Counted from the stretch's first letter, positions 1 through 39,312 are shown. The stretch is DNA of 64,000 bases from an uncultured Ruminococcus sp. (GCA_964621755.1 CAZUPI010000007.1:7016-71015); one strand, 5' to 3'. Numbers and translations are program-made. Notes: generated by a model not told the origin, from the letters alone.

Positions 1-96
1 CTGCGATGTGACGCCAAGAGCCTGCGCCAAATCTTCCTGAGTTCTTCCATCCCTGCGACGGAGTTCTCTCATTTGTTCTCCCAATTTAATCTGCAT
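1..96 (-). CDS. XRE/Cro-CI-type helix-turn-helix regulator, N-terminal fragment (gene continues past window start)
   Basis: Reverse-strand ATG at 96..94 follows a GGAGAA Shine-Dalgarno. Translation MQIKLGEQMRELRRRDGRTQEDLAQALGVTSQ is a typical HTH_3 N-terminus. It is absent from the ORF track because the window edge truncates it. Confidence 0.55.
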   Translation of the reverse strand, partial: MQIKLGEQMRELRRRDGRTQEDLAQALGVTSQ

Positions 97-351
97 ATTA
101 TTTTCTCCAATATAGTTTATTCACCGGTGTGACTACATTCTATCATATAAATTCAGCGAAAACAATTATCAATTTGTTGTTCAAAAATCAACATATTGTT
201 TGATTTTACACCGTGCTTTATATTTCTATGGGGTTAGCAAGCATCGGATTTTGGCGCCAAAGTCCAAAACAAGCGGAAAAAATATAGTAGGCGGTGACTT
301 CTTTATGAGGTTCCGCCCACTCCGCTGTCCTTTTCAGGCAACCTGATTCAC

Positions 352-406
352 ATTAATATTTCTCAAACATTTTTCTAAACTTTCTCAAATATCGTCGGTA
401 TAGAAT
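352..406 (+). promoter_or_regulatory. Promoter/operator copy A: ATTAATATTT box, three CAAAC-like direct repeats at about 10-11 bp spacing, and -10 TAGAAT
   Basis: ATTAATATTTCTCAAACATTTTTCTAAACTTTCTCAAATATCGTCGGTATAGAAT. It is near-identical to 1551..1605 and related to 5180..5234 and 5844..5899. The box-to-(-10) distance is 49 bp. Confidence 0.6.
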
Positions 407-450
407 AAATAAGACAAGTGAGAAATCGCTGAATATAAGGAGGCAGAATT

Positions 451-1551
451 ATGAAAATCCAAAACCCAGAAGTAACGTTGAGCGATGAGGCAAGAAACGG
501 CGTGAAAGAGGAGGTCAGAAGCGGATTCCTCGACTGGTTGTTTCAGTTTTCCACAGAAGGCGACGACGGGGAGATTTACTCTCTCGGCGGCTCAATTCTT
601 TCCCTTGCTCTCGAAAAAATTGATCTGGTATCCATCAACTGGACGAAAGGAAAAGGCGATGCGGTTCAGCTTCCCAATTCGATCTATAAGCTCGGCAAGT
701 ACCCCGGAATGCAGCTTGAGCGGCTGCTGCGCAAACCCCAAGGAACGCTCCAAATTGAAAAGAAAGAACACAGCGTTTTCGTGACCTGCGGCGAAGAATA
801 TCAGGTGGAATGCTTCGAGAATCACGCATGGCACCTGATGATCGATACGCTGGACGGCGAATATAAAGCCGACCTCTGGCACAGACCGCAGGGGTATCCA
901 CTTTGGTATGGCAGAGAAAAACCATCCTACCTGACACAGCACTCCGTGACATACGGTTATAACTGGGCAGGTGAAGTGGAAGGAACGATATGGATTAAGG
1001 GAAATCAAGTAAAAGTAAAGGGTCTCGGCATCCGTGAACGCTATGTTGCGGTGGATTCCTCTGCGGCGGAGCTTGGCGGCTGGGAAGACTGGGGCTTTAT
1101 CTCTTTCAACGAGATTCATTCGTCCATGTACGATATGCGGATCGGCATGAAGGATTTCTCCGTTTACGATCTGCAGACCGGGAAGCACTACCCGGAAGGC
1201 AATATGACAATCACCCATGAGGATTGGGCGTTCCTGCGCGAGTTGGACGGCTTTATCCCGACGGTATACAAGGTGAAAATAGAACTGGAGGACGGCGTGT
1301 ACGAGATTAAAGCACATGTTTGCAATGCGACGACATGGGGCGCCACCTTCAAAGTGCCGGATAATCCCGTTGCAACCCTTACCTATGATAAAGTAGAAGG
1401 AACTTTTACTCACAAGGATGGCACAGTGAGAAAACTGACCGGCGGACGAGGCTGTATGTCAGTACGGCAATGGCACGCTTATCCCAACATTCTCCCCCGG
1501 GAGCTGTATTCGGATGAAACGCCCACCGGCGAGAAATTTGAGACTTTATAA
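451..1551 (+). CDS. Hypothetical cytoplasmic protein (366 aa), family not recognised
   Basis: Intact ORF with AAGGAGG 8 nt upstream of the ATG. No signal peptide or TM segment is visible. It is driven by promoter copy A. Confidence 0.7.
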   Translation: MKIQNPEVTLSDEARNGVKEEVRSGFLDWLFQFSTEGDDGEIYSLGGSILSLALEKIDLVSINWTKGKGDAVQLPNSIYKLGKYPGMQLERLLRKPQGTLQIEKKEHSVFVTCGEEYQVECFENHAWHLMIDTLDGEYKADLWHRPQGYPLWYGREKPSYLTQHSVTYGYNWAGEVEGTIWIKGNQVKVKGLGIRERYVAVDSSAAELGGWEDWGFISFNEIHSSMYDMRIGMKDFSVYDLQTGKHYPEGNMTITHEDWAFLRELDGFIPTVYKVKIELEDGVYEIKAHVCNATTWGATFKVPDNPVATLTYDKVEGTFTHKDGTVRKLTGGRGCMSVRQWHAYPNILPRELYSDETPTGEKFETL

Positions 1552-1605
1552 TTAATATTTTTCAAACATTTCTCTAAACTTTCTCAAATATTGCCAATGT
1601 AGAAT
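1551..1605 (+). promoter_or_regulatory. Promoter/operator copy B (same architecture as copy A)
   Basis: ATTAATATTTTTCAAACATTTCTCTAAACTTTCTCAAATATTGCCAATGTAGAAT. The -10 TAGAAT lies 49 bp after the ATTAATATTT box, directly upstream of the ABC operon. Confidence 0.6.
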
Positions 1606-1640
1606 AAGCATATCAAGTAAAGCAAGGGAGAGATCAAAAT

Positions 1641-1668
1641 GAACGCTATAGAAAGAACGCTATAGAAA
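1641..1668 (+). repeat. Perfect 14-bp tandem duplication (GAACGCTATAGAAA x2) inside the 5' end of the first ABC ATPase gene
   Basis: Positions 1641-1654 and 1655-1668 are identical. Removing one copy restores ATG(1639) MNAIEIRNLSKSFRGLYAVEGLNMTVPVG in frame with ORF 1722..2552. Confidence 0.9.
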
Positions 1669-1721
1669 TTAGAAATCTATCAAAAAGCTTTCGCGGACTG
1701 TATGCGGTTGAAGGTCTGAAT

Positions 1722-2552
1722 ATGACGGTTCCCGTTGGAGCGATTTATGGCTTTATCGGGGAAAACGGCTCCGGCAAATCTACTACAGAGAAGCTGATTT
1801 GCGGCCATCTTGTCCTGGACGGCGGCACAATCAAGTTGTTCGGAAGAGATTATAAGGATGCCGGCGTGCGCGTCCGGGTCGGCGCCCTGATTGAGAACGC
1901 AGGCTGCTTTCCGAATTCCAGCGTATGGGATAACCTGATGATGCAGGCTATCAATCTGGGGCTGGAAAATCCCGCCGAAGAAATCAACCGCGTGCTTGGA
2001 ATCGTCCGTATGGAGGATTCCGCAAAGATTAAATTCAAAAGCTGTTCTCTGGGAATGAAGCAGCGTATCGGCATTGCGATGGCGCTGCTGGGGGACCCGG
2101 CCTTGCTGATTCTCGATGAGCCCATCAACGGTCTTGACACCGATGGTATGCGGATCATGCGGGAAATCCTGATGGATATTACCCGGAAATATTCTACCAC
2201 TGTGCTAATCTCCTCGCATATTCTCGGGGAACTCGAAAAAATTGCCACGCATTACGGCATCATCCGCCAGGGGAAAAAGATTCAGGAAATCTCTGCAAAG
2301 GAAATGGAAAACAGAGCCCGTGTGTTCGTATCCATTAGAACAAAAGATATGAGAGGCGCAAAAAGCGTTTTGCAGAAAAGATTCGCGGATGTCCGGGAAG
2401 AGGAAGGGTATCTGCGCGTATACGAGGTAGATAATACAGAAGCGATTGTTGACTATCTGTATCGAAGCGGACATGTTGTGAACGAAATCCGAAAAAATAA
2501 AATCGGTCTGGAAGAGTACTATGTCGAGATGATGTCAAAGAAGGAGGCGTAA
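1722..2552 (+). CDS. ABC transporter ATP-binding protein (BcrA/lantibiotic-immunity-like); intact ORF only, ancestral start at 1639 disrupted
   Basis: Walker A GENGSGKST, signature LGMKQR, Walker B LLILDEP and H-loop SSHIL are present. The RBS-equipped ATG at 1639 is separated from this ORF by the 14-bp duplication, which gives a stop at 1663. Confidence 0.85.
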   Translation: MTVPVGAIYGFIGENGSGKSTTEKLICGHLVLDGGTIKLFGRDYKDAGVRVRVGALIENAGCFPNSSVWDNLMMQAINLGLENPAEEINRVLGIVRMEDSAKIKFKSCSLGMKQRIGIAMALLGDPALLILDEPINGLDTDGMRIMREILMDITRKYSTTVLISSHILGELEKIATHYGIIRQGKKIQEISAKEMENRARVFVSIRTKDMRGAKSVLQKRFADVREEEGYLRVYEVDNTEAIVDYLYRSGHVVNEIRKNKIGLEEYYVEMMSKKEA

Positions 2553-2556
2553 TCCT

Positions 2557-3393
2557 ATGGAAGCAGTGCGTAAATTAAGATTTAAATCGCCAAGTTTTAT
2601 TAACAGATTGAAGGGTATGCTGGGCGTTGATTTCTATCGCTTATTCCATACGCCCATGTTTTACATTTTTCTGGCAATAGCCGCGATGATTCCGGCGCTG
2701 ATCTTGGGGACCACCGGAACCACCGAAGGGGTGGAACCGCTATACACCAATACCTGGAACATCGTTGCAGCGGATACGCCCATTTATGCTGTTTCAGATA
2801 TGGGTGAATACGCCAATATGAACATGGTATTTATCTTTGGCGGTATTATGGTTTCCATCTTTATCGGACATGATTATAAAAGCGGATACGTGAAGCAGCT
2901 GTTCACCACCCATTCGAAAAAACAGGACTATATGATGTCTAAATCCATCACCTGCGCTTTCGCTATGGCTTGTATGTGCATCACTTACCTGATTGGCGGC
3001 GTGGCTGCGGGATTGCTTGTCGGGGCGTCCTTTGAGGTCAATGTCGGCTCGCTGATTTTTGCAATCCTCTCCAAAATGATTATGAGCCTTGGCTGGGCAA
3101 GCCTTTATACCTTCCTCAACATCATCTTCAGAAGATATTTTGGCATTTCCATCGCTTCGTCCTTCTTCTTTGGTACGGGCATTCTGATTATCGGCGCAGG
3201 TATGATTATCGGAAATTCCTCTATCCTCAATATTTTCCTATATGGTTCTTCGGTCTATGCGTGCCTGTCAAGCAGTATTGTGACCTTGCTTGTGTGCCTT
3301 GCAGTCTCGGCAGCATGGGCGGTTATCTATAATGTACTCGGTTCGCTCATCCTCTCGAAAAGCATGTATATTGATAGGAGGCGGTTAAAATGA
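2557..3393 (+). CDS. ABC-2-type transporter permease
   Basis: 278 aa with about 6 hydrophobic segments. It starts 5 nt after the ATPase stop, and its stop overlaps the ATG at 3390 (ATGA). Confidence 0.75.
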   Translation: MEAVRKLRFKSPSFINRLKGMLGVDFYRLFHTPMFYIFLAIAAMIPALILGTTGTTEGVEPLYTNTWNIVAADTPIYAVSDMGEYANMNMVFIFGGIMVSIFIGHDYKSGYVKQLFTTHSKKQDYMMSKSITCAFAMACMCITYLIGGVAAGLLVGASFEVNVGSLIFAILSKMIMSLGWASLYTFLNIIFRRYFGISIASSFFFGTGILIIGAGMIIGNSSILNIFLYGSSVYACLSSSIVTLLVCLAVSAAWAVIYNVLGSLILSKSMYIDRRRLK

Positions 3394-3457
3394 ATGCAAT
3401 AGAAATTAAGGCTTAACCAAAAACTTTGGAGACAAACAAGCGCTCAAAGGTCTCAAT

Positions 3458-4288
3458 ATGACCGTTCCTGTGGGAGCGATATACGGTTTCATCGGGGAAA
3501 ATGGAAGTGGAAAATCCACGACCGAAAAGCTCATCTGCGGACTTCTCGTTCCGAGCGGAGAAACGATTAAGCTGTTTGGCAGAGATTATACCAATGCGGA
3601 TGTTCGAGCAAAGGTCGGCGTCCTCATCGAAGCGCCTGGATGCTTCCCGAATTACAGTGTGTGGAACAACATGATGCTCCAAGCTGCCAATTTAAGTATT
3701 CAAAACCCGGAGACAGAGGTAAGAAAAGTTCTGAAAATGGTCAGAATGGAAGGCGCTGCCGGAAATAAATATAAAAACTGTTCTTTGGGTATGAAGCAAA
3801 GAATCGGCATCGCCATGGCGCTGCTGGGACGTCCGACCTTGCTGGTGCTGGATGAACCGATTAACGGTCTGGATGCGGACGGCATGCGCATTATGAGAGA
3901 GGTGCTTGTGAATATCACCAAAAACTACAGATGCACCGTTGTAATCTCCTCTCATATTCTGGGGGAACTCGAAAAGATAGCGACACATTACGGAATTGTC
4001 CGCGGCGGCAAAATGATTAAAGAGATGACCGCCGAAGAATTGGATGCGGGATGCCGGACCTATGTGGCTCTTCAAACAAGGGAGATGAGCCGAACAAAGG
4101 CGCTGCTGGCCTGCAAGTTTTCACGTGTGAAAGAAGATGAAAGTGGATATATCCGTGTGTATGACGTGGAAAATCCCGAGCAGGTTGTCACGTATCTGTA
4201 TGAAAACGGCATCTTGATAAGTGAGATCCAAACAGCCAAGATTGGTTTGGAAGAATACTATATCGATTTGATGAAGGAGGGCAGATAA
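3458..4288 (+). CDS. ABC transporter ATP-binding protein, paralogue of 1722..2552; ancestral start at 3390 lost by -1 frameshift
   Basis: It has the same motifs as the first ATPase and is highly similar to it. ATG at 3390 gives MNAIEIKA then a stop at 3414. Inserting one G in AAGGCTTAACC restores MNAIEIKGLTKNFGDKQALKGLNMTVPVG. Confidence 0.85.
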   Translation: MTVPVGAIYGFIGENGSGKSTTEKLICGLLVPSGETIKLFGRDYTNADVRAKVGVLIEAPGCFPNYSVWNNMMLQAANLSIQNPETEVRKVLKMVRMEGAAGNKYKNCSLGMKQRIGIAMALLGRPTLLVLDEPINGLDADGMRIMREVLVNITKNYRCTVVISSHILGELEKIATHYGIVRGGKMIKEMTAEELDAGCRTYVALQTREMSRTKALLACKFSRVKEDESGYIRVYDVENPEQVVTYLYENGILISEIQTAKIGLEEYYIDLMKEGR

Positions 4289-4289
4289 C

Positions 4290-5111
4290 ATGGAAAAGAC
4301 AGAGAAAATCAAATTTGCGCATAACAGCTTTGGCAAACGGCTGAAAAGCATGTTATCGGTGGACTTTCGAAGAATGTTTACAATGCCGCTGCTCTATATC
4401 ATGGTGGGTATCGCCGCCGTGATTCCCATATTGGTACTGGTAATGACGACTGCTATGGATGGGTCCGTTTCTGTAGATCCGGTAACAGGCGTGGAAACGG
4501 TAGTGGAAATGGAACCCTTTACAAACACTTGGCAAGTTGTTGAATCGGTAAGTAGCGATAGCTCCGGAATAAGCGCCGATATCATGAGTATGTGCAATAT
4601 TAACCTGCTTTTCTTCATGGCGGCAGTTCTTGTTTGCATTTTTGTTGCTGATGATTTCAGAAGCGGATATGCAAAAAATCTCTTTACGGTTCGCTCCCCA
4701 AAAAACGACTATGTGGTCTCGAAAACCCTTGTAGGCTTTGTCGGCGGCGCACTTATGATTTTGGCTTACTTGGTTGGCTCACTTCTCGGAGGTGCTATCG
4801 CGGGATTATCCTTCGACGCAGGCGCGGCAGGCGTCAGCGGAATCGTGATGTGTCTTCTGTCAAAGGAGTTCTTAATGGCGGTATTTGTTCCGATTTACCT
4901 GTTATGGAGCGTTGTGGGCAAACAGAAACTATGGCTGTCCATGGTCGGCTCGTTTTGCGTCGGCATGCTGTTCTTCATGATGATTCCTGCGCTGACGCCT
5001 CTAAATTCCGGAATCATGAATGTCATTATGTGCTTGATTGGGGGAGCATTATTCAGCGTGGGTCTCGGTGCCGTCAGCAACACGGTATTAAGAAAAACAA
5101 GTTTGGTGTAA
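4290..5111 (+). CDS. ABC-2-type transporter permease (diverged paralogue of 2557..3393)
   Basis: 273 aa, multi-pass hydrophobic. It starts 2 nt after the ATPase stop. Confidence 0.75.
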   Translation: MEKTEKIKFAHNSFGKRLKSMLSVDFRRMFTMPLLYIMVGIAAVIPILVLVMTTAMDGSVSVDPVTGVETVVEMEPFTNTWQVVESVSSDSSGISADIMSMCNINLLFFMAAVLVCIFVADDFRSGYAKNLFTVRSPKNDYVVSKTLVGFVGGALMILAYLVGSLLGGAIAGLSFDAGAAGVSGIVMCLLSKEFLMAVFVPIYLLWSVVGKQKLWLSMVGSFCVGMLFFMMIPALTPLNSGIMNVIMCLIGGALFSVGLGAVSNTVLRKTSLV

Positions 5112-5179
5112 CGGTACCTTCCTGATTTTCATCCGGGATTTGGCATCCCGCTATGGAAATTTTGTGACAAAAGCCGCAA

Positions 5180-5234
5180 ATTAATATTTTTCAAACAATT
5201 TTGAAGCAAGCTGCAAACAATCATGGGGTAATAT
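5180..5234 (+). promoter_or_regulatory. Promoter/operator copy C
   Basis: ATTAATATTTTTCAAACAATTTTGAAGCAAGCTGCAAACAATCATGGGGTAATAT. The -10 TAATAT lies 49 bp after the box. Confidence 0.5.
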
Positions 5235-5262
5235 ATAGCCAGATAACCTATATATGATTCAC

Positions 5263-5290
5263 AGGCAGCAGCCCATAGTCGCTGCTGCCT
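5263..5290 (+). terminator. Terminator-like hairpin in the leader downstream of promoter C
   Basis: AGGCAGCAGC-ccatagtc-GCTGCTGCCT followed by ATTTTATT. Confidence 0.45.
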
Positions 5291-5314
5291 ATTTTATTGC
5301 GAGGGAGGAAAAAG

Positions 5315-5732
5315 GTGGAAAGACTACTTAAGATATTGCGTTCCCGCACCATACCATATTTAATTTGCGATCATGAGCTTTTGAGCGCACTGCGCATGGC
5401 AGCGAAAAAGAGTGCGAATCATCACGCCGCATATCCCGGATAAGAAAACCGTCTTTCTGATGACGCGCCCAAATTATGGGGTGTTGATTCAGGACGGCGT
5501 GAAAATCTACGAATATACGCCGGGCTTTATTCATGCCAAGAACTTCATCTAGAACTTCATCCGCTTGAGTGTGGCGCATGGATGTATGATACGGACTTGC
5601 ATCCCGGACATGAAAGCGGACTTTTTGGAGACGGTCACACAATCTGAGAAGATTACGGCGGACAGGGCCCGATCGCGGGGATGGAAACGGTTATTGGCCG
5701 AGCTGATGAAAGTCTTCTCACCATTATTGTAA
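5315..5732 (+). pseudogene. Cardiolipin synthase (Cls, PLD/HKD family) C-terminal remnant: 5'-truncated, frameshifted, with an in-frame stop
   Basis: The pieces read ...YLICDHELLSALRMAAKKS / IITPHIPDKKTVFLMTRPNYGVLIQDGVKIYEYTPGFIHAKNFI* / ...DMKADFLETVTQSEKIT...LAELMKVFSPLL*. The HKD motif GFIHAK and the Cls-like C-terminus are recognisable. The N-terminal two thirds are missing. Confidence 0.6.
5539..5562 (+). repeat. 12-bp near-perfect tandem duplication (AGAACTTCATCT/AGAACTTCATCC) creating a TAG stop in the cls remnant
   Basis: 11 of 12 positions are identical. The junction creates TAG at 5550..5552, right after the HKD motif. Confidence 0.8.
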
Positions 5733-5843
5733 GGACGTTAAGAGTTGGGTTCCTAATAGGCAGATTGACAGAGGAGAATTCAATTTAGGCGGATGGCGTT
5801 CTGACGCTTTCGTCCTGGGTACAGAAATCACAGCAATTTTAAA

Positions 5844-5899
5844 ATTAATATTTTTAGAAACAATCCTCAAACAAAGTGCAAACAAAAATCGGGTATTAT
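5844..5899 (+). promoter_or_regulatory. Promoter/operator copy D (upstream of the two-component operon; likely autoregulation)
   Basis: ATTAATATTTTTAGAAACAATCCTCAAACAAAGTGCAAACAAAAATCGGGTATTAT. The -10 TATTAT lies 50 bp after the box. Confidence 0.5.
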
Positions 5900-5947
5900 G
5901 TTATGATATAGAGGTCTTACAATAGGATCAGAGAAGGAAACCGAGCC

Positions 5948-6835
5948 ATGAAACACTTTAAACGGATTTTGAATCACATTCTGTTTCCCAAATTAGCGGT
6001 GGTAATTATCAGTGTGCCGGTCGCGGTAGCTCTACTTGTCTATACGTTTTTATATGAGGAGGACTACAGCCTAGTTGCTTATATATCCTATATGCTGTCT
6101 GCATATTCTTTGATTATCGTGTGCGCACGGATTATCAGAATGCCCAAAGGAGACTTTAAGGCTGTGCTGCATCGGAATCAGTATATTCATAGGTACTTGA
6201 CAGATATTCCGTTTAAGACACATGTTTCGCTGTACCTGTCGCTTGGGATTAATCTGCTCTTTGTGGCAATGAAGCTCTTTTATGGCGTCTATTACAGTTC
6301 TGTGTGGTTTGGAACTCTGGCGGTTTACTATATCATGCTGGCCGTGATGCGCTTCCTGCTGCTGCGGCATGTCAAGCGAAATGCAATTGGAAAGGAGCTT
6401 GTTTTAGAACTGCGGCAGTATCGTTTGTGCGGTATTATCCTGTTGCTGATGAACATCGCATTGTCCGGTGTTGTGGTTCTTGTGGTCAGGAAAAATGAAG
6501 GCTTTCATTATGCCGGTTACCTGATTTATGTGGTCGCTATGTACGCTTTCTACAATATTATTTCGGCAGTCAGGGACGTTGTAAAATATAGGGAATATAA
6601 GAGCCCTGTTATGTCGGCGGCGAAAGCAATCAAATTGGCAACAGCTTTGGTGTCCATGCTGTCGCTGGAAACGGCAATGCTGATGCAGTTTGATACAGGC
6701 GAGAACCCACCGGTTTTTAGAAGAGTTATGACTGCAACCACGGGCGGTTGCGTTTGTTTCTTCGTGCTTGCAATGGCTGTTTTTATGATTATAAAATCAA
6801 CCAAGCAGCTAAAAAATGATAGCACGCAAACATAA
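5948..6835 (+). CDS. Multi-pass integral membrane protein of unknown function (295 aa)
   Basis: About 7-8 hydrophobic helices. It is the first gene behind promoter D, 17 nt upstream of the response regulator. Confidence 0.7.
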   Translation: MKHFKRILNHILFPKLAVVIISVPVAVALLVYTFLYEEDYSLVAYISYMLSAYSLIIVCARIIRMPKGDFKAVLHRNQYIHRYLTDIPFKTHVSLYLSLGINLLFVAMKLFYGVYYSSVWFGTLAVYYIMLAVMRFLLLRHVKRNAIGKELVLELRQYRLCGIILLLMNIALSGVVVLVVRKNEGFHYAGYLIYVVAMYAFYNIISAVRDVVKYREYKSPVMSAAKAIKLATALVSMLSLETAMLMQFDTGENPPVFRRVMTATTGGCVCFFVLAMAVFMIIKSTKQLKNDSTQT

Positions 6836-6852
6836 GAAATGGAGGAATTCTG

Positions 6853-7524
6853 ATGATAAAGATTCTTGTTTTGGACGATGATGTAAAGTTAAACCAGACG
6901 GTTTGCACTTACTTAAATGACTGCGGGTTTCAGACCAAGGGCTGTTTGCGTGCAAAAGACGCATACGATGAGATGTATAATAATTTATATGAGCTGATTA
7001 TCTCTGACATCATGATGCCGGAGGTGGATGGTTTTGAATTCGCGGAAAACGTAAGAAAGGTAAACAAGCATATACCAATCCTGTTCATGTCGGCCAAGGA
7101 TGACCTGCCTTCCAAGCAGAAAGGTTTTCAGCTGGGAATCGATGACTATATGGTCAAGCCAAATGAGTTGGATGAACTGCTTCTTCGTGTTCGGGCGCTT
7201 TTACGCCGCGCCAATATTGAAATGGATCGAAAGCTGACGGTGGGAAATTTGAAGATGTATGCGGATGCCATGGCTGCTACAGTGAATGGGGATGAGATTC
7301 CGATGACGACCAGGGAATTTAACATCCTGTATAAGCTGCTGTCCTACCCGAATAAGACTTTTTCCCGCTCCCAGCTAATGGATGAGTTCTGGGGAATCGA
7401 ATCGGAAACCAGCCTGCGGGCGGTGGATGTATATATTACGAAGCTGCGGGATAAATTCTCAATCTGTGACGGCTTTGAGATTAAGACAGTACGGGGGCTA
7501 GGCTATAAGGCGGTGCTGCGATGA
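6853..7524 (+). CDS. OmpR/PhoB-family DNA-binding response regulator
   Basis: The receiver domain has DD...D (ISDIMMP) and K (MVKP). The C-terminal winged helix reads LTTREFNILYKLLSYPNKTFSRSQL...VDVYITKLR. Confidence 0.9.
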   Translation: MIKILVLDDDVKLNQTVCTYLNDCGFQTKGCLRAKDAYDEMYNNLYELIISDIMMPEVDGFEFAENVRKVNKHIPILFMSAKDDLPSKQKGFQLGIDDYMVKPNELDELLLRVRALLRRANIEMDRKLTVGNLKMYADAMAATVNGDEIPMTTREFNILYKLLSYPNKTFSRSQLMDEFWGIESETSLRAVDVYITKLRDKFSICDGFEIKTVRGLGYKAVLR

Positions 7525-7533
7525 AAACGAAGA

Positions 7534-8613
7534 ATGCCAATAACTGGGCGGAAATTAAGGCAAGCCGGTTCCCCATATCGATTTTTTTCGTTTTTTTTGT
7601 TGACTCTTCTATTGATGTCCGGCATGCATTACGGAATCCTTGTGTTTGGGCATGAGAAGCAGTGGCCCAATTTGCTGCAGATTACGCTTCCTGTCCTGTA
7701 TTGGACATTGGTGGCAGCGGTGCTTACGTTGTTTACGAAATGGGAAATCCAAAGGCGTTACGAAAAGCCCGTAGTAAAGCTGCGGGAAGCCACCGAAAAG
7801 GTGGCGAATGGGGATTTTTCTGTGTATGTCCCTCCGCTGCACACCCATGAAAAACTGGATTATCTGGATGCCATGATTCAGGATTTTAACAAGATGGTAG
7901 AAGAACTGGGGAGCGTTGAAGTACTGAAAACAGATTTTTTCTCCAATGTATCCCATGAGATTAAGACTCCCTTAGCGGTGATTCACAACAATGCGGAACT
8001 TCTTCAAAACGAAAATCTGACAGATGCGCAGCGCAAAGAATGCACCCAAACAATTCTGCATGCCACACGGAGACTGTCCAATCTAATCATGAATATGCTG
8101 AAGCTAAATAAACTGGAAAAGCAGGTTATAAAACCGATACCCCAGCGGTTCGATTTGTGCGCCCAGCTTAGCGAATGCGCCCTGCAGTTTGAAAAAAGCT
8201 GGGAAGAGAAAGAGATTGAATTTGTGGCAGAACTGGAGGACCGGGCATTCATCATCGGTGATGAGGAGCTGCTGTCGCTGGTCTGGACAAATCTGCTGTC
8301 CAATGCTATTAAGTTCACACCTGCCGGGGGAACTGTGACGCTGACCCAGACCTCCGATACCGACGGGATAACGGTCTCGGTTGCTGATACCGGCTGCGGC
8401 ATGAATGCGGAAACTATCAAGCACATCTTCGATAAATTCTATCAGGGGGACACATCTCACGCTACCGAGGGCAATGGCCTCGGCTTATCCCTAGTACGGC
8501 GGATTTTGGAATTATCTGATGGAACGGTTTCCATAAAAAGCGCGGTAGGGCAGGGAAGTATCTTTACCGTCCGGCTGCCTGCATTTCATGATAGAGAGGA
8601 GACTCCGCAATGA
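7534..8613 (+). CDS. Sensor histidine kinase: two TM helices with a loop of about 11 aa (intramembrane-sensing type), HAMP, HisKA and HATPase
   Basis: H-box FFSNVSHEIKTPL, N-box LLSNAIKF, and G-boxes DTGCGM and GNGLGLS are present. The start is uncertain: an alternative ATG at 7521 overlaps the RR stop but is in another frame across a T7/T8 tract. Confidence 0.85.
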   Translation: MPITGRKLRQAGSPYRFFSFFLLTLLLMSGMHYGILVFGHEKQWPNLLQITLPVLYWTLVAAVLTLFTKWEIQRRYEKPVVKLREATEKVANGDFSVYVPPLHTHEKLDYLDAMIQDFNKMVEELGSVEVLKTDFFSNVSHEIKTPLAVIHNNAELLQNENLTDAQRKECTQTILHATRRLSNLIMNMLKLNKLEKQVIKPIPQRFDLCAQLSECALQFEKSWEEKEIEFVAELEDRAFIIGDEELLSLVWTNLLSNAIKFTPAGGTVTLTQTSDTDGITVSVADTGCGMNAETIKHIFDKFYQGDTSHATEGNGLGLSLVRRILELSDGTVSIKSAVGQGSIFTVRLPAFHDREETPQ

Positions 8614-9137
8614 TGGAAGACGAAAAAAAGGATTATATTGGTTACGAGTATAAAGAGGTTACCGTTCGCTCGGAAGAGGTTTCCTTCTATCTGGACAGCT
8701 ACGAGAATTTTGGATGGATTGAAGACGAACATCTCACCGCCACCTATGGTTCCTATTTAACGACGATACGCCTAAAGCGTGACAGGAAGATTATCAATAA
8801 GATGGAGCTGACGCGGTTGCAGCAGCATTTTGAAGCCTGCGTCAACGAAATGAAAGCATTGGAAAGAGCAAAATTCTCTGCCGCTATGGGATGGGCCTTG
8901 ACAATCGGCATCATCGGAACCGCGTTTATGGCAGGCTCGACCTTTGCGGTCACCCATGAGCCTCCGATTATCTGGCTGTGTATTCTGCTGGCGGTTCCAG
9001 GCATTGTCGGATGGATATTGCCCTATTTTATTTATAACGGGATTGTCGGGAAAAAGACACAGGAGATTCAGCCGCTGATTGAGGCGAAGCAGGAAGAAAT
9101 GTATGAAATCTGTGAAAAGGGCCACTCCCTGTTATAA
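8610..9137 (+). CDS. Small membrane protein (N-terminal soluble domain plus 2 TM), translationally coupled to the kinase
   Basis: The ATG overlaps the kinase TGA (ATGA). TM segments are AMGWALTIGIIGTAFMAGSTFAV and IWLCILLAVPGIVGWILPYFIY. Confidence 0.65.
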   Translation: MMEDEKKDYIGYEYKEVTVRSEEVSFYLDSYENFGWIEDEHLTATYGSYLTTIRLKRDRKIINKMELTRLQQHFEACVNEMKALERAKFSAAMGWALTIGIIGTAFMAGSTFAVTHEPPIIWLCILLAVPGIVGWILPYFIYNGIVGKKTQEIQPLIEAKQEEMYEICEKGHSLL

Positions 9138-9270
9138 AAGGCTTCGGCACCTGATGAAGAGGATAAACATCAGTACTTTATAAAGCGTATTCCGATTGTT
9201 AGTTTACCAATCGTTTCAATCCTTCGTCCAGTATCCTTCTACTTTGTTATCTTTTCTTGGTATGATAAGA

Positions 9271-9308
9271 CCTCCTGTTGTAGACTATATATAGTCTACA
9301 ACAGGAGG
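9271..9308. terminator. Bidirectional intrinsic terminator between convergent genes
   Basis: Perfect palindrome CCTCCTGTTGTAGACTATAT/ATAGTCTACAACAGGAGG followed by CTTTTTG. Confidence 0.8.
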
Positions 9309-9327
9309 CTTTTTGTCACTGTCTTTT

Positions 9328-9861
9328 TTATTTGATTCCGTATTTTTCTGCGAACTGTGAGACAGTTTTAACCCAGTGTTCGTAAGTAAAACTCTTCTTG
9401 ATGTCGGACAAATCGATATATGCCCCGTTCACAATAGCCTGTTCCGCGGCTTCGGCTATCATCGCTTCTTTGGTATAGTTGTCGCTCAGGGATTTTTCAA
9501 ATTCCATGTTCATTTTTTGGCTGACGCCTTCCATTGCTCCTATATAGAACAAGCTTTCGCGCCCCAGTAAATCTCCGATTTTTTCAAAGCATTCTATCCC
9601 TTCACGGATATCCGCAATACTTACCACACGTTTGTATTCCATAATTTTTTCACCTCCTGATAAAATATTGTCAACCGTTGTGCGCAGAATCTCTGCGAGG
9701 TCGAGCAGAATTCCTACATCGGGAATCGTCTCTCCACGCTCCCACTTTGATACCGCTTGGTAGGATATGCTAAGCCGTTCGCCCAGCTCGTTCTGCGTCA
9801 AACCGATATGTTTGCGTAGCATGGCTATCTGTGCACCCACTTTTTTTGAATCAACAGTCAT
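9328..9861 (-). CDS. XRE-family HTH transcriptional regulator with an uncharacterised C-terminal domain
   Basis: The start was chosen at MTVDSKK, with AAGGGGG 6 nt upstream. HTH: LTQNELGERLSISYQAVSKWERGETIPD. Confidence 0.8.
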   Translation of the reverse strand: MTVDSKKVGAQIAMLRKHIGLTQNELGERLSISYQAVSKWERGETIPDVGILLDLAEILRTTVDNILSGGEKIMEYKRVVSIADIREGIECFEKIGDLLGRESLFYIGAMEGVSQKMNMEFEKSLSDNYTKEAMIAEAAEQAIVNGAYIDLSDIKKSFTYEHWVKTVSQFAEKYGIK

Positions 9862-10036
9862 CTGATTCCCCCTTGTTAAAAATTTCAAAGCGCTTCGATA
9901 TCTATATTTTACAGATAAAAAGCCCCTTTTTCAATGACCGCGTGAGTTATATTTTAAGGGAAAACTAAATCAAGAGGTTAGTCCTCAAAAACTTAAAATT
10001 GACGCTTGATAGTGTGGCGGTTACGAAAATACAATA

Positions 10037-10070
10037 AAATCTCCCCCAAACCTGAGTCGGAGGAGATTTT
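10037..10070 (-). terminator. Intrinsic terminator downstream of the SLH protein gene
   Basis: AAAATCTCC...GGAGATTTT stem-loop, with T-rich sequence following on the minus strand. Confidence 0.6.
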
Positions 10071-10102
10071 ATTGTTCATTAATACTATACGATTACGCTA
10101 TA

Positions 10103-11830
10103 TCAGCCGTTGTAAACCGAGATATGGCTGTTCAGTTCGGTAACAAGTTCGATAACTGCAGTGGAAGTTGCACCGCTATCTTCGAGAAGGGCGCTTGCTT
10201 CTTCGTAGTGTTCAATAAGACCGCTGTCATTTGCTGCAACACCGCTGTCGATGAGCATCTTTGCCTGAAGTACGAGAGCTTCAAGAAGGGCACGTTCCGC
10301 ATCAGTTGCAGGAGATTCCGCGATGATGTTTGCGTAGTTGCTGCTGGAAACGGTTACGACGTAGGTGTTCGCGCTGTTGTAAGCTTCGGTCATTGTGACC
10401 TTTCCATCAACAACAGCTACACCGGAAGCTACAGTGGTCTTCTGACGACCGGAACCATAGTAGATACCAACTGTTACATCTTCGAGTGCTTCGGGAATAT
10501 TTTCTACAACGACATCGGCAGAGCCTTCAGCGAAGGTAGCTTTGATGACTTCGGAACCATCATAAGCAGGCTTGATGTAAATACCGTCGAAGGTATAAAC
10601 GTAAGTATTGTCGGGCATGATGTAGGTGATGGAAGTAACCCTTTCACCAACAAGTTTGGCAAGCTCAGGAAGGTTATCCCATCCAACGATATGGGAGTTG
10701 CAAAGACTGTCTTCACTTACGTTGAAGGAAACTTCCCAAGGCTGTACCCACATGCTCTGGAGATGTTCCATACCAACTTTAAGACCGGATTCGGTTTCAA
10801 GGATAATACCTTGGATATTTGCGTTAATGATCCAACCTTCATCCGAACGGTTGGTGCGGATATATGCGGTGGAGTTTTCAGTTACGTTGATTTGATAATC
10901 ACCCCATGTGGAACCGGTCTGAAGTTCAGCGGAGGCGTCTGTTACTGTTTCAACGATGTTGAAATTGGTGGCAGAATATACTGCTTTTCCATCAACAATC
11001 GAAACGGTCTTATACTGTTCGGGTGTACTTCTTGCAAGCTTGAATGTGGGATTAATTTCGAGATATGCATCATAATCATCCGCAGAAACAGCAACATTTA
11101 CATTTTTTACACCAAGAATATTGTAACCGTCCGTATTTTCTTCGGTGTAATTCGTGTACATGTTATCATTGAAGCTACTATACATTTTTACGGTAGCAGA
11201 AGTAACGCCGTCAATGCCGTAATATTCGGTTGTGCTGACGTCTCCGGAGTAGTATTCAGCATAAGTCAGCGTAGCAGTGCCGTAAACGACATCATGCTCA
11301 CTGATGTCAAAGGTCAGTGTATCGTAAATGTTGTCCAGAATTGTGATGCCTTCCGCACGTGTCAACTGAGAAGTAGGGTTAAGTAAGCCGGCGGTAGTGC
11401 CGTGGACATAATCGCCCGCAACCAGAGCAGCTACAGCATTTTTGGCACCTTCGGAAATCTCAGCAGCATCGCTGAACTTGGAAAGAGCGGCAATATCTGT
11501 ATCGGTTGCCGTAAGTCCCAGAACATCAGCAACAATGGTCATCGCTTCTTCACGGGTGAATATGCCGTCTTCATCTTCTTCCGTATTTTCAATAGGCGAC
11601 TTTGAGATTTGATTCAGAAGAGAAACAAACTGCGCGCGGTCCATTGCGACATCCGGACTGTAATGTACAACGCCATAATCGTTCATCCAACCGCTGTCAA
11701 CAAAGAACTGCAAGGATTTTTCAGCCCAGTGGCCGGCAATATCCGTGGCAGGAGCCGCGGCTGCGGATGCTGCCACACACATACTTCCAACCAGCAGTGC
11801 ACAGAAGAGAGTGTTGATTTTCTTGTTCAT
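10103..11830 (-). CDS. Secreted cell-wall-anchored protein: signal peptide, SLH repeats, and an uncharacterised C-terminal region of about 400 aa
   Basis: Signal peptide MNKKINTLFCALLVGSMCVAASAAAA. SLH-like blocks are DIAGHWAEKSLQFFVDSGWM...DRAQFVSLL and FSDAAEISEGAKNAVAALVAGDYVHG...LTRAEGITIL. It contains IDGVTSAT, which resembles the flavinylation motif. Confidence 0.8.
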   Translation of the reverse strand: MNKKINTLFCALLVGSMCVAASAAAAPATDIAGHWAEKSLQFFVDSGWMNDYGVVHYSPDVAMDRAQFVSLLNQISKSPIENTEEDEDGIFTREEAMTIVADVLGLTATDTDIAALSKFSDAAEISEGAKNAVAALVAGDYVHGTTAGLLNPTSQLTRAEGITILDNIYDTLTFDISEHDVVYGTATLTYAEYYSGDVSTTEYYGIDGVTSATVKMYSSFNDNMYTNYTEENTDGYNILGVKNVNVAVSADDYDAYLEINPTFKLARSTPEQYKTVSIVDGKAVYSATNFNIVETVTDASAELQTGSTWGDYQINVTENSTAYIRTNRSDEGWIINANIQGIILETESGLKVGMEHLQSMWVQPWEVSFNVSEDSLCNSHIVGWDNLPELAKLVGERVTSITYIMPDNTYVYTFDGIYIKPAYDGSEVIKATFAEGSADVVVENIPEALEDVTVGIYYGSGRQKTTVASGVAVVDGKVTMTEAYNSANTYVVTVSSSNYANIIAESPATDAERALLEALVLQAKMLIDSGVAANDSGLIEHYEEASALLEDSGATSTAVIELVTELNSHISVYNG

Positions 11831-15712: not shown

Positions 15713-15741
15713 AATATATCACTATCTCAGATGTTTGTCAA
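15713..15741 (-). promoter_or_regulatory. Sigma-A-type promoter TTGACA-17-TATATT for the FRD/FMN-apbE operon
   Basis: Minus-strand hexamers at 15741..15736 and 15718..15713. Confidence 0.55.
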
Positions 15742-15832
15742 TATCAATTTCGTAAATTTTATAGCCGCATATAAAAACATCCATTTGCAGACCAAATCCA
15801 TTTCTCACACGTAAAAAGGTTTTTAAAGGGGT

Positions 15833-15869
15833 TCGGGGGAAACTTTTTTAAGGTAAAAGTTTCCCCCGA
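15833..15869. terminator. Palindromic hairpin terminator (GGGGAAACTTTT family)
   Basis: TCGGGGGAAACTTTT-ttaaggt-AAAAGTTTCCCCCGA, just downstream of the minus-strand isomerase gene. Confidence 0.7.
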
Positions 15870-15890
15870 GAGCTCATGATTTCACTATCA

Positions 15891-17366
15891 TCAATCAAAC
15901 GGATTTTCCGTCGGATAGGGTATCGACTTCGGCTGGTTGTAAGAAATATCCACAATACCGATATACTTCAATACTTCGTAAATCGCCTTGCCGTGATTTC
16001 CGAACGCCACTGCGCCGTGGTGCGGGAATCTCTTTTCAATCAGCACATGACGGTAGAATCGGTCCATTTCCGGAATCGCAAACGCGCCGATAGAACCGAA
16101 GCTTTCGCAGTCAACGTCGAGTACTTCACCCTGCGCAATGTACGCGCGGAGCTTTGTATCCGCCGTGCCCTGAAGCCGGAACAGCGTAATTGCACCCGGT
16201 TTAATGTTCCCTTCAAGTGTGCCGCGGGTAATATCCGGCTCGGGAAGCTCAGGTTCAAGGTCACGCTTCATGATGAGCTGGTATCCCATGTGCGGATTTT
16301 TAAGCAGCTTCGAGCATGTGTTGCCGCAATGGAAGCCCATGAATGTCTCCGTCAGCTTCGCGCTGCACTTGCCGCAAATCGACTTGTCGTAAATCGACTT
16401 CGGAACCGTGTTGTTGATGTCGAGCAGCGTCACAGGCGCACCCGATACACAGATTCCTATGTATTCGGACAGCACCCCGTAAATGTCAACCTCGCAAGAT
16501 ACCGGGATACCCATCGCCGTCAGGCGGCTGTTGACATAGCACGGTACAAACTTGAACTCCGTCTGGAACGCAGGCCAGCACTTCCCGGCAAACGCAACAT
16601 AGTCTCGCGCACCCTTATGCTGCTCCGCCCAGTCAAGCAGGGTCAGCTCGTACTGCGCAAGCCGCGGAATAATTCCCGCATACTTATTGTCAGGACCAAG
16701 TTCCGCTTCCATTTCCGCCACTTTTTCAGGAATGCGCGGGTCGCCGGTATGCTTGTTGTAAGCCACCAAAAGGTCAAGCTCGGAGTTTTCTTCCACTGCA
16801 ACACCAAGGTCATACAACGGCTTTACCGGACCGTTGCACGCCAGAAAATCGTCCGGCCGAGGTCCAAAGGTGATCACCTTCAGTCCCTTCAGTCCAAGTA
16901 TTGCGCGGGATATCGGCACGAATTCGCGCACCTTTTCCGCAAGCTCTTCCGCATTTCCCACCGGGTAGGACGGAATGTAGGCAGTCTTACCGCGCAGTCC
17001 GAGGTTGTAAGAGCAGTTGAGCATACCGCAGTAAGCGTCGCCGCGCCCGTCGTGCAGATCGCCATCTCCCTCGGCGGCGGCAGCATACATGATGGGACCA
17101 TCAAACCATTCAGCAATGAGCGTCTCCGGTGTCTCAGGACCAAAGTTGCCAAGGAACACGAACAGGGCGTTTACACCGTGCGCCTTTACGTCCGCCACTG
17201 CCTTCTTTGCATCAAGCTCATTTTCCACTGTTACGGGACATTCGTACAGTTCTCCACCGTACGCTTTAACAAGCGCTGTGCGGCGGCGTTCGGACAATGC
17301 CTTCGGGAAGCAGCTTCGCGAAACCGCGATAATGCCGAGTTTTACCTCCGGAATGTTGTATATCAT
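15891..17366 (-). CDS. L-fucose/L-arabinose isomerase family protein
   Basis: 491 aa. N-terminus KLGIIAVSRSCFPKALSERR...VFLGNFGPE and overall collinearity with the fucose-isomerase-like family (from recall). Confidence 0.7.
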   Translation of the reverse strand: MIYNIPEVKLGIIAVSRSCFPKALSERRRTALVKAYGGELYECPVTVENELDAKKAVADVKAHGVNALFVFLGNFGPETPETLIAEWFDGPIMYAAAAEGDGDLHDGRGDAYCGMLNCSYNLGLRGKTAYIPSYPVGNAEELAEKVREFVPISRAILGLKGLKVITFGPRPDDFLACNGPVKPLYDLGVAVEENSELDLLVAYNKHTGDPRIPEKVAEMEAELGPDNKYAGIIPRLAQYELTLLDWAEQHKGARDYVAFAGKCWPAFQTEFKFVPCYVNSRLTAMGIPVSCEVDIYGVLSEYIGICVSGAPVTLLDINNTVPKSIYDKSICGKCSAKLTETFMGFHCGNTCSKLLKNPHMGYQLIMKRDLEPELPEPDITRGTLEGNIKPGAITLFRLQGTADTKLRAYIAQGEVLDVDCESFGSIGAFAIPEMDRFYRHVLIEKRFPHHGAVAFGNHGKAIYEVLKYIGIVDISYNQPKSIPYPTENPFD

Positions 17367-39146: not shown

Positions 39147-39312
39147 ATGTAGTACTCCTTATAATTTAAAATTTGCTGTGAGTTTGGAGGTTCCGGTGCG
39201 AAACGTATTAAAAAAAACTCACATTCCGTCGTATACAGAGTATCATATATAAGTAACAAAATCAAGTCTGAAATATTAATTATAGAGGAATTTTTGCTTT
39301 AATTATTAACAT

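Follow-up and report, generated by a model that had tools for sequence, protein, structure and literature searches.

The 64,000-nucleotide (nt) stretch of DNA analyzed here (the window; GCA_964621755.1 CAZUPI010000007.1:7016-71015, from an uncultured Ruminococcus sp.) carries a two-component system (TCS) with an OmpR-type response regulator and four copies of an operator/promoter element of about 55 bp, here designated sites A to D. An initial annotation of this DNA had placed the copies at positions 352, 1551, 5180, and 5844, each starting with a ATTAATATTT box, followed at 49 to 50 bp by a -10 hexamer (TAGAAT, TAGAAT, TAATAT, and TATTAT) and having no good -35. It had also listed the genes behind them, in order, as those of a 366-amino-acid (aa) protein, a double ABC operon, a cardiolipin synthase (cls) remnant, and an operon for a membrane protein, a response regulator, a histidine kinase, and a second membrane protein. 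This description was confirmed, and the four sites are as follows:

352..406 (+), site A, a four-half-site operator with the -10 TAGAAT at 401-406, 36.2 bits, predicted to drive the 366-aa gene
1551..1605 (+), site B, operator with the -10 TAGAAT at 1600-1605, 42.1 bits, predicted to drive the double ABC operon
5180..5234 (+), site C, the top-scoring operator, with the -10 TAATAT at 5229-5234, 58.0 bits, preceding the cls remnant
5844..5899 (+), site D, the putative autoregulatory operator with the -10 TATTAT at 5894-5899, 35.9 bits (5844/5845), preceding the TCS operon

The scores are those of a position weight matrix (PWM) that was seeded from the repeats ("CAAACA" words) alone in related loci and then iterated. 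When both strands of the window were scanned, only sites A to D were detected, every other position scoring 4 bits or less, and in 30 shuffled windows the score was never above 0. The -10 hexamer begins 49, 49, 49, and 50 bp past the start of the box in A, B, C, and D, respectively, site D having one extra base (1 nt) between half-sites 1 and 2, and a consensus scan identified no -35/-10 pair in any of the elements. In pairwise comparison, A shares 82% identity with B (68 nt) and C shares 75% identity with D (48 nt); site B adjoins the stop codon of the 366-aa gene (overlap at 1549-1551). Transcription is predicted to start near positions 413 (A), 1612 (B), 5241 (C), and 5906 (D), about 7 nt past the -10. 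A fifth exact copy of ATTAATATTT, at 39271 (-), was rejected as a chance occurrence because no repeats lie behind it. A permissive Rfam scan (by E value) of positions 1 to 10000 returned nothing relevant and therefore indicated no riboswitch or known leader there.

The genes and other features behind the sites are the following:

451..1551 (+), 366-aa cytoplasmic protein with a predicted AttH/CrtC-like double beta-barrel fold (AlphaFold2 and Foldseek)
1639..2552 (+), ABC ATPase 1 (Pfam ABC_tran), disrupted
2557..3393 (+), ABC-2 type permease 1 (Pfam ABC2_membrane_4), at least six transmembrane segments by hydropathy
3390..4288 (+), ABC ATPase 2 (Pfam ABC_tran), disrupted
4290..5111 (+), ABC-2 type permease 2 (weak match to Pfam ABC2_membrane_4), six hydrophobic segments
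5263..5298 (+), GC-rich hairpin with a T-run from the terminator scan (10 pairs, 7 of them GC), about 30 nt past the -10 of site C
5385..5732 (+), frameshifted cls remnant of about 120 C-terminal residues that also contains an internal stop and a deletion
5948..6835 (+), 295-aa polytopic membrane protein whose gene opens the TCS operon, at least six transmembrane segments by hydropathy
6853..7524 (+), response regulator of the OmpR/PhoB family (Pfam Response_reg and Trans_reg_C), the proposed binder of sites A to D
7521..8613 (+), histidine kinase with two transmembrane helices, a loop of about 10 to 11 residues, and HAMP, HisKA, and HATPase_c domains (Pfam)
8610..9137 (+), 175-aa protein, last gene of the operon, with a cytoplasmic N-terminal part, two C-terminal transmembrane helices, and a weak match to DUF2207_C
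9271..9316 (+), intrinsic terminator closing the TCS operon, a perfect 19-bp palindrome with a T-run

A matrix of the three "CAAACA" words detected many sites in the related loci, nearly all of which also carried (A/T)TTAA(T/C)A(A/T)TT in the same upstream register. The iterated model covers 168 non-overlapping sites and gave 0 in shuffled sequence. Its information content is concentrated in four blocks of 5 to 6 nt located exactly 11 columns apart and in the T, A, and T of the -10, and the spacers are uninformative. With the -10 placed at -12 to -7, the blocks are as follows:

about -60 to -55, half-site 1, TTAAYA
about -49 to -44, half-site 2, sAAACA
about -38 to -33, half-site 3, CAARCA
about -27 to -22, half-site 4, CAAAYA

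Half-site 3, which lies 20 bp from the -10, covers the position of the missing -35. The -10 (TAnnnT; T, A, and T each at 96%) begins 9 nt past half-site 4 and lies a median of 49 nt before the start codon (357 sites). The C is fixed at 87 to 94% in half-sites 2 and 3 and at 70% in half-site 4. The ATTAATATTT box is half-site 1 of four in an 11-bp register and not a separate element, which corrects the previous reading of a box followed by three words. Tandem direct repeats with a periodicity of 10 to 11 bp that occupy the place of the -35 and stop about 10 bp short of the -10 constitute the pho-box-type layout of OmpR/PhoB-family activators. In the pho boxes of PhoB and PhoP, 11-nt units with 6 conserved and 5 variable positions are bound by tandem dimers (PMC2275107).

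We consider it likely that sites A to D are activator-dependent promoters of one regulon under the response regulator encoded at 6853-7524, two tandem dimers of which would replace the -35. The regulator is predicted to bind all four sites. Its action as an activator, as claimed in the initial annotation, is suggested by analogy with the pho-box layout. Alternatively, the same regulator might bind and repress, with induction corresponding to its release: the half-sites, at about -60 to -22, overlap the polymerase footprint, half-site 4 lies within the -35/-10 spacer, and some OmpR-family regulators are released on phosphorylation, such as Clostridioides difficile RR_1586, which binds a different repeat, TTAAG (PMC6222199). 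However, with no -35 at all, the promoters should have little activity unless an activator is present, the 9 to 10 bp between the last half-site and the -10 correspond to the activation geometry of PhoB and PhoP, and sites for positive autoregulation are a usual feature of inducible stress systems. We regard repression as unlikely.

The assignment of the element to this regulator is based on three independent anchors. The first was the regulator itself, the orthologues of which (76 to 89% identical) gave 80 loci from Lachnospiraceae, Oscillospiraceae, Erysipelotrichaceae, and other gut and rumen metagenome-assembled genomes (MAGs) and isolates. Cultured organisms with an intact locus include Eisenbergiella tayi DSM 26961 (L057), Faecalimonas umbilicata DSM 103426 (L034), Bariatricus massiliensis AT12 (L009), and Diplocloster agilis (L012). 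These loci and the window contain 169 sites (165 beyond the four of the window), all on the strand of the regulator. Of the 68 loci with enough upstream sequence, 60 have a site no more than 1.6 kb upstream of the regulator gene; the usual distance is about 1.0 kb, which places the site ahead of a gene for a membrane protein of about 300 aa, and in some cases it is about 100 bp. No site was found inside the regulator or kinase genes in these loci, and 33 sites were found just downstream of the kinase gene.

The second anchor was the motif alone (TTAAYAWTT-N3-AAACA-N6-AARCA-N6-AAACA), which was used to search contigs from viruses and metagenomes. Of the 122 stretches recovered, 63 encode a regulator or kinase orthologue, and 34 of the other stretches were shorter than 5 kb. 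Sites were on the strand of the TCS in 110 cases versus 3 on the opposite strand. In the stretches lacking the TCS, 62 of 84 sites precede gene families that adjoin the TCS elsewhere. Three overlapping sites in a giant-virus MAG contig (L082; 11302-11423) were set aside as probably due to chance, because they are low scoring and located in very A/T-rich DNA with no related genes.

The third anchor, the 366-aa protein, led to two loci, L203 and L205, with homologues that are 86% and 84% identical, respectively. In these loci, sites precede cls, the 366-aa gene, an operon for a small protein and double ABC transporter, a MacB-type pump, and a radical SAM gene. The equivalents of site A lie before the orthologous 366-aa gene at L203 9873 and L205 9730, those of site B lie at L203 11121 and L205 15272, and an intact cls follows a site in L004 (6609), L028 (2919), and L203 (7132). 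Since three independent anchors tie the motif to the regulator, the element is neither a generic repeat nor a chance occurrence. The data establish the motif itself, how it is built and conserved, and that it is tightly linked in genomes to the regulator family and to recurring cargo; the promoter recurs hundreds of times alongside the TCS in other gut Clostridia. These counts (169 sites, 60 of 68 loci, and 63 of 122 stretches) and the two loci L203 and L205 bear out the previous proposal that a shared operator defines a regulon of the adjacent OmpR-type TCS, its own operon included.

The same data bear on two further explanations. In one, the sites would be constitutive A/T-rich promoters (an UP element plus a -10) or a dispersed nonregulatory repeat, in which the CAAACA words are compositional or DNA bending. 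The element is A/T rich, the bare ATTAATATTT 10-mer is not significantly enriched in the window (10 matches with at most one mismatch versus 7.5 expected), and lanFEG-RK loci of gut commensals have been reported to be constitutive (PMC10793476). This is nevertheless very improbable in view of the position-specific conservation (the fixed C) next to free spacers, with 0 matches in shuffled sequences, and of the orientation of all sites with their genes at a median of 49 nt before the start codons. In addition, the element is confined to the TCS and its cargo families and is thus not a repeat found independently of gene function, the flanks of the four sites are not conserved, and a repeat scan revealed no terminal inverted repeats.

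In the other, the sites would be bound by a different factor traveling with the island, such as another OmpR-type protein, an alternative sigma factor, or the flanking XRE-type repressors. Sites occur without the TCS in 23 motif-anchored stretches of at least 5 kb, L203 encodes a second winged-helix protein near its sites (217 aa; Trans_reg_C), and XRE genes flank the locus in the window. However, no second regulator conserved across the loci was found, the window holds a single OmpR-type gene, and direct repeats of 11 bp resemble neither XRE palindromes nor sigma factor -35/-10 elements spaced at 16 to 18 bp. Recovery of this same regulator or kinase by the motif-only search also argues for the resident TCS, and we consider a different binder to be a quite unlikely explanation.

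Several observations weigh against the assignment of sites A to D to the resident regulator as an activator. The 23 stretches with sites and without the TCS are one of these, although their regulator may be encoded far away in the genome; otherwise, another factor may be involved. The loci are evolutionarily related, so that the counts of sites do not represent independent events. The strongest conservation is found in half-site 1 (TTAAYA followed by WTT), whose consensus departs from that of half-sites 2 to 4; this block could be a target for another factor or serve in part as an UP element. Half-sites 3 and 4 of sites A and B are weak and slightly off register (CTAAAC and CAAATA), and the cargo of these two sites is closest to that of loci in which the regulator is only 62% identical, suggesting that the resident regulator may use A and B poorly. 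L203, which is otherwise intact and encodes one of these 62% identical regulators, has no site above 8 bits before the regulator gene (15727-15899), so that autoregulation does not extend to every member of the wider family. Finally, we found no literature on this TCS family or its operator, and the lanFEG-RK systems of gut commensals have been reported to be not only constitutive but also unresponsive to nisin (PMC10793476).

The regulator contains a receiver domain (PF00072; 1.7e-22) and a winged-helix domain (PF00486; 2.1e-20), and its PDB matches include BasR, PrrA, and MtrA. It scored below every NCBIfam equivalog cutoff and therefore belongs to an unnamed OmpR/PhoB subfamily. Among 117 orthologues (61 to 100% identity), the DNA-binding domain is almost invariant, in agreement with the conserved operator. 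The transmembrane segments of the kinase lie at about residues 20 to 38 and 50 to 68 and are followed by HAMP; two helices with a loop of only about 10 residues, as in the intramembrane-sensing kinases of Bce-type systems, suggest that it probably senses within the membrane. The 295-aa protein, a candidate accessory or sensing partner, matched no Pfam family at the cutoff, and its family (C0) lies directly behind a site in 69 instances. Homologues of the 175-aa protein account for 133 tblastn hits across the loci, and its family (C4) directly follows sites 27 times.

If these promoters are activated by the resident regulator as proposed, the kinase, possibly together with the cotranscribed 295-aa and 175-aa membrane proteins, would sense within the membrane, detect a perturbation of the membrane or envelope, and phosphorylate the regulator. 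Two head-to-tail regulator dimers would then fill the four half-sites and recruit RNA polymerase, as do PhoB and Bacillus subtilis PhoP at pho boxes, and transcription would begin about 7 nt past the -10. The outputs would be the TCS operon itself (D), an AttH-fold protein for a hydrophobic ligand (A), two ABC-2 exporters (B), and a cardiolipin synthase (C). A cell-envelope-active compound would be a reasonable signal, given the short-loop two-helix sensor of the kinase and the membrane-related cargo.

The 366-aa protein gave no match in Pfam or NCBIfam and has 365 homologues, the best 120 of which are 71 to 94% identical. Its AlphaFold2 model (predicted local distance difference test score, 76) is an all-beta double barrel, for which Foldseek returned AttH (2ich), 25-phosphosteroid lyase, fungal Diels-Alderases, and kievitone hydratase with E values of 1e-7 to 5e-11; the probability was 1.00, and the TM-scores to 2ich, 9fzn, 6kbc, and 7a0t were 0.45 to 0.56. 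On the basis of the modeled fold, the protein is probably an enzyme or binder for a hydrophobic small molecule. A few of its best 120 homologues carry source names from Bacteroidota, Ignavibacteria, and Proteobacteria, a distribution like that of resistance or detoxification genes that have spread horizontally.

For ABC ATPase 1, the best NCBIfam match was the lantibiotic-protection ATPase TIGR03740, at 173 bits versus a cutoff of 309.75, and no NCBIfam model matched the permeases of the window (about 275 aa). By tblastn against the intact Cls of L004 and L028, the cls remnant corresponds to residues 401 to 522 only, at 42% identity and with a stop inside. Given the hairpin at 5263..5298, a transcript from site C would end after about 55 nt. 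The hairpin may have been left behind by the cls deletion, or it may act as a small RNA or attenuator.

The locus carries four lesions within 9 kb, which affect both ABC ATPases, the kinase, and cls. In ABC ATPase 1, there is a 14-bp tandem duplication (1652-1665) after codon 5, and removal of 14 bp restores MNAIEIRNLSKSFRGLYAVEGLNMTVPVG (MNAIEIRNLSKSF...), matching the orthologues; its start was resolved with the help of L203 and L205, and in L069 another small gene intervenes. ABC ATPase 2 has a 1-nt deletion near 3411-3413 (codon 8), and addition of one base restores MNAIEIKALTKNFGDKQALKGLNMTVPVG (MNAIEIKALTKNFG...), matching L203 and L205. Both of these lesions fall within the first 10 codons (MNAIEI...). 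In the kinase gene, an extra T in a T8 run (7591-7598) causes a frameshift, leaving an in-frame ATG at 7534; without one T, MKTKNANNWAEIKASRFPISIFFVFLLTLLLMSGMHYG is restored, an orthologue-like N terminus starting from the ATG at 7521, which overlaps the stop codon of the regulator gene. With three of the four outputs and the kinase damaged, the circuit is probably partly or wholly defunct in this genome. Other long genes of the window look intact, and the lesions are therefore more likely to be real decay than a general assembly error. They fit the fitness cost and pseudogenization that have been reported for related lanFEG-RK resistance modules of gut commensals (PMC10793476). In L205, the 366-aa gene is followed by a fragment (11352-11639) of a related regulator gene that retains the DNA-binding half alone (54% identical to residues 128 to 223), a further sign of decay and rearrangement in such islands.

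Across the loci, the gene families found behind sites are those of the membrane protein of about 300 aa that opens the TCS operon (69 sites), a 123-aa small membrane protein (61 sites), the regulator itself (59 sites directly upstream), a 94-aa amphipathic protein (32 sites), relatives of the 175-aa protein (27 sites), an NAD-dependent epimerase (22 sites), ABC ATPases of the type found in the window (10 sites), a CmpB-like membrane protein (9 sites), a radical SAM/SPASM enzyme (5 sites), and cardiolipin synthase (3 sites). This cargo points to membrane remodeling and export, which is compatible with a signal from the envelope or membrane. The island has a modular, mosaic structure: units headed by a site match the blocks of DNA similarity, and the order of the 366-aa gene, the ABC pairs, cls, and the TCS varies between loci. 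L004 holds nine sites in 13 kb (791-10806 region), several of which overlap the stop codon of the preceding gene, like site B. The cargo of the window shares 78 to 86% protein identity with that of L203 and L205, and their regulator is only 62% identical.

A broader and more tentative reading, for which we see an outside chance, is that the 55-bp regulator-dependent promoter serves as the joint of a horizontally exchanged modular defense island directed at a hydrophobic membrane-active gut compound. Units with their own promoters (ABC-2 and MacB pumps, cls, the AttH-fold enzyme, the epimerase, radical SAM enzymes, and small membrane proteins) would be shuffled between loci, possibly via recombination at the promoters, and the four-gene sensor module (membrane protein, response regulator, histidine kinase, and membrane protein) could recruit new cargo. 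The inducer might be a bile acid, an ionophore, or a lantibiotic, and a new detoxifying enzyme for it would be provided by the AttH-fold protein, which is highly conserved and occurs across phyla. Of these features, block shuffling and cassette-like packing were observed.

Autoinduction by a ribosomally synthesized and posttranslationally modified peptide via the radical SAM/SPASM cargo was considered and rejected, as no precursor peptide was found. Hydrophobic 33-aa ORFs lie between the site and the radical SAM/SPASM gene in L205 (19041-19142) and L028 (6027-6128) but are mutually unrelated and do not resemble precursors of such peptides, and no small ORF precedes this gene in L203 or L031.

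XRE-type helix-turn-helix genes flank the regulon island in the window at 1-97 (-) and 9328-9888 (-). Inspection of the DNA to the right of the locus for signatures of mobile elements revealed housekeeping genes for acetate kinase, ApbE, an SLH protein, and a sigma factor and a GC content that is only slightly different. Homologues of the acetate kinase point to an Oscillospiraceae-like origin of the contig within the uncultured Clostridia. An 838-aa protein encoded at 17681-20197 (-) combines an N-terminal extracytoplasmic function (ECF)-type sigma-70 domain (regions 2 and 4) with a DUF3108-like C-terminal part; it is an unusual sigma fusion unrelated to the regulon.

The analysis provides a concrete operator model, with four half-sites, a fixed -10, and predicted starts, for an uncharacterized TCS family that is widespread in gut Clostridia (Lachnospiraceae, Oscillospiraceae, and Erysipelotrichaceae), together with a list of targets that includes pumps, cardiolipin synthase, small membrane proteins, and the unannotated AttH-fold protein. 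It also offers a natural inducible promoter for organisms in which genetic work is difficult and a way to find out what is sensed in the membranes of these commensals. Mechanistically, the system is conventional, and the understanding of OmpR-family regulation is left unchanged.

Among known systems, the Pho regulons (PhoB in Escherichia coli and PhoP in B. subtilis and Streptomyces) share with the present one 11-bp tandem repeats in place of the -35, with about 10 bp between the last repeat and the -10, the occupancy (predicted here) of four units by two dimers, and a regulator with receiver and winged-helix domains. Liu and Hulett are said to have described, in 1998, a B. subtilis PhoP core site of four TT(A/T/C)ACA repeats at about -60 to -20, and this half-site resembles the TTAAYA and CAAACA reported here. 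However, the kinase lacks the PAS and extracellular domains of PhoR, half-site 1 has its own consensus, and the cargo consists of membrane and efflux genes, with no phosphate genes. The best PhoB models gave 165 and 150 bits versus cutoffs of 270 and 296, and the PhoR model gave 182 bits versus a cutoff of 334 with the kinase, so that orthology to PhoB/PhoR is not indicated.

BceRS-BceAB systems similarly pair an intramembrane-sensing kinase with an OmpR-family regulator, which together induce the ABC transporter next to them. The window encodes no permease of the BceB/FtsX type, with its large extracellular domain, and a MacB/FtsX pump was found behind a site only in L205. BceR-type boxes are inverted-repeat-like and are not known to consist of four direct repeats. 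The LanFEG/LanRK group (NisRK/SpaRK, C. difficile CprABC-CprK/R, and the gut "LRS" [PMC10793476]) likewise has an OmpR-type TCS adjoining ABC-2-type exporters, occurs in gut Bacillota, spreads horizontally, and includes pseudogenized members, and the best NCBIfam match of the ATPase is to lantibiotic protection. In contrast, the window encodes two pairs of an ATPase and a single permease, with no lanF-lanE-lanG, lanI, or biosynthetic genes; the TCS has its own membrane-protein genes, and the regulon adds cls, the AttH-fold protein, the epimerase, and radical SAM enzymes. Without the three-gene transporter, and with the ATPase below the TIGR03740 cutoff, the locus falls outside this group.

LiaFSR and VraTSR also have a membrane-protein gene before the TCS, are autoregulated, respond at the envelope or membrane, and have a link to cls in daptomycin resistance. 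Their regulators are of the NarL/LuxR type and act on inverted repeats, whereas the regulator described here is of the OmpR type, with Trans_reg_C and not GerE, on direct repeats, which places it outside this class. In the logic of its operon, SaePQRS of Staphylococcus aureus (PMC5083920) comes closest, the proteins being unrelated: the operon is autoregulated and encodes accessory membrane proteins along with the regulator and a kinase of about 350 aa that senses within the membrane, and the direct-repeat operator, in 11-bp phase (GTTAAN6GTTAA), is similar to half-site 1. The Sae system differs in its accessory proteins (those of the window have no Pfam match), in its virulence factor targets, and in needing only two half-sites. 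The element fits none of the named systems compared and works as a pho-box-type promoter of the OmpR/PhoB family.

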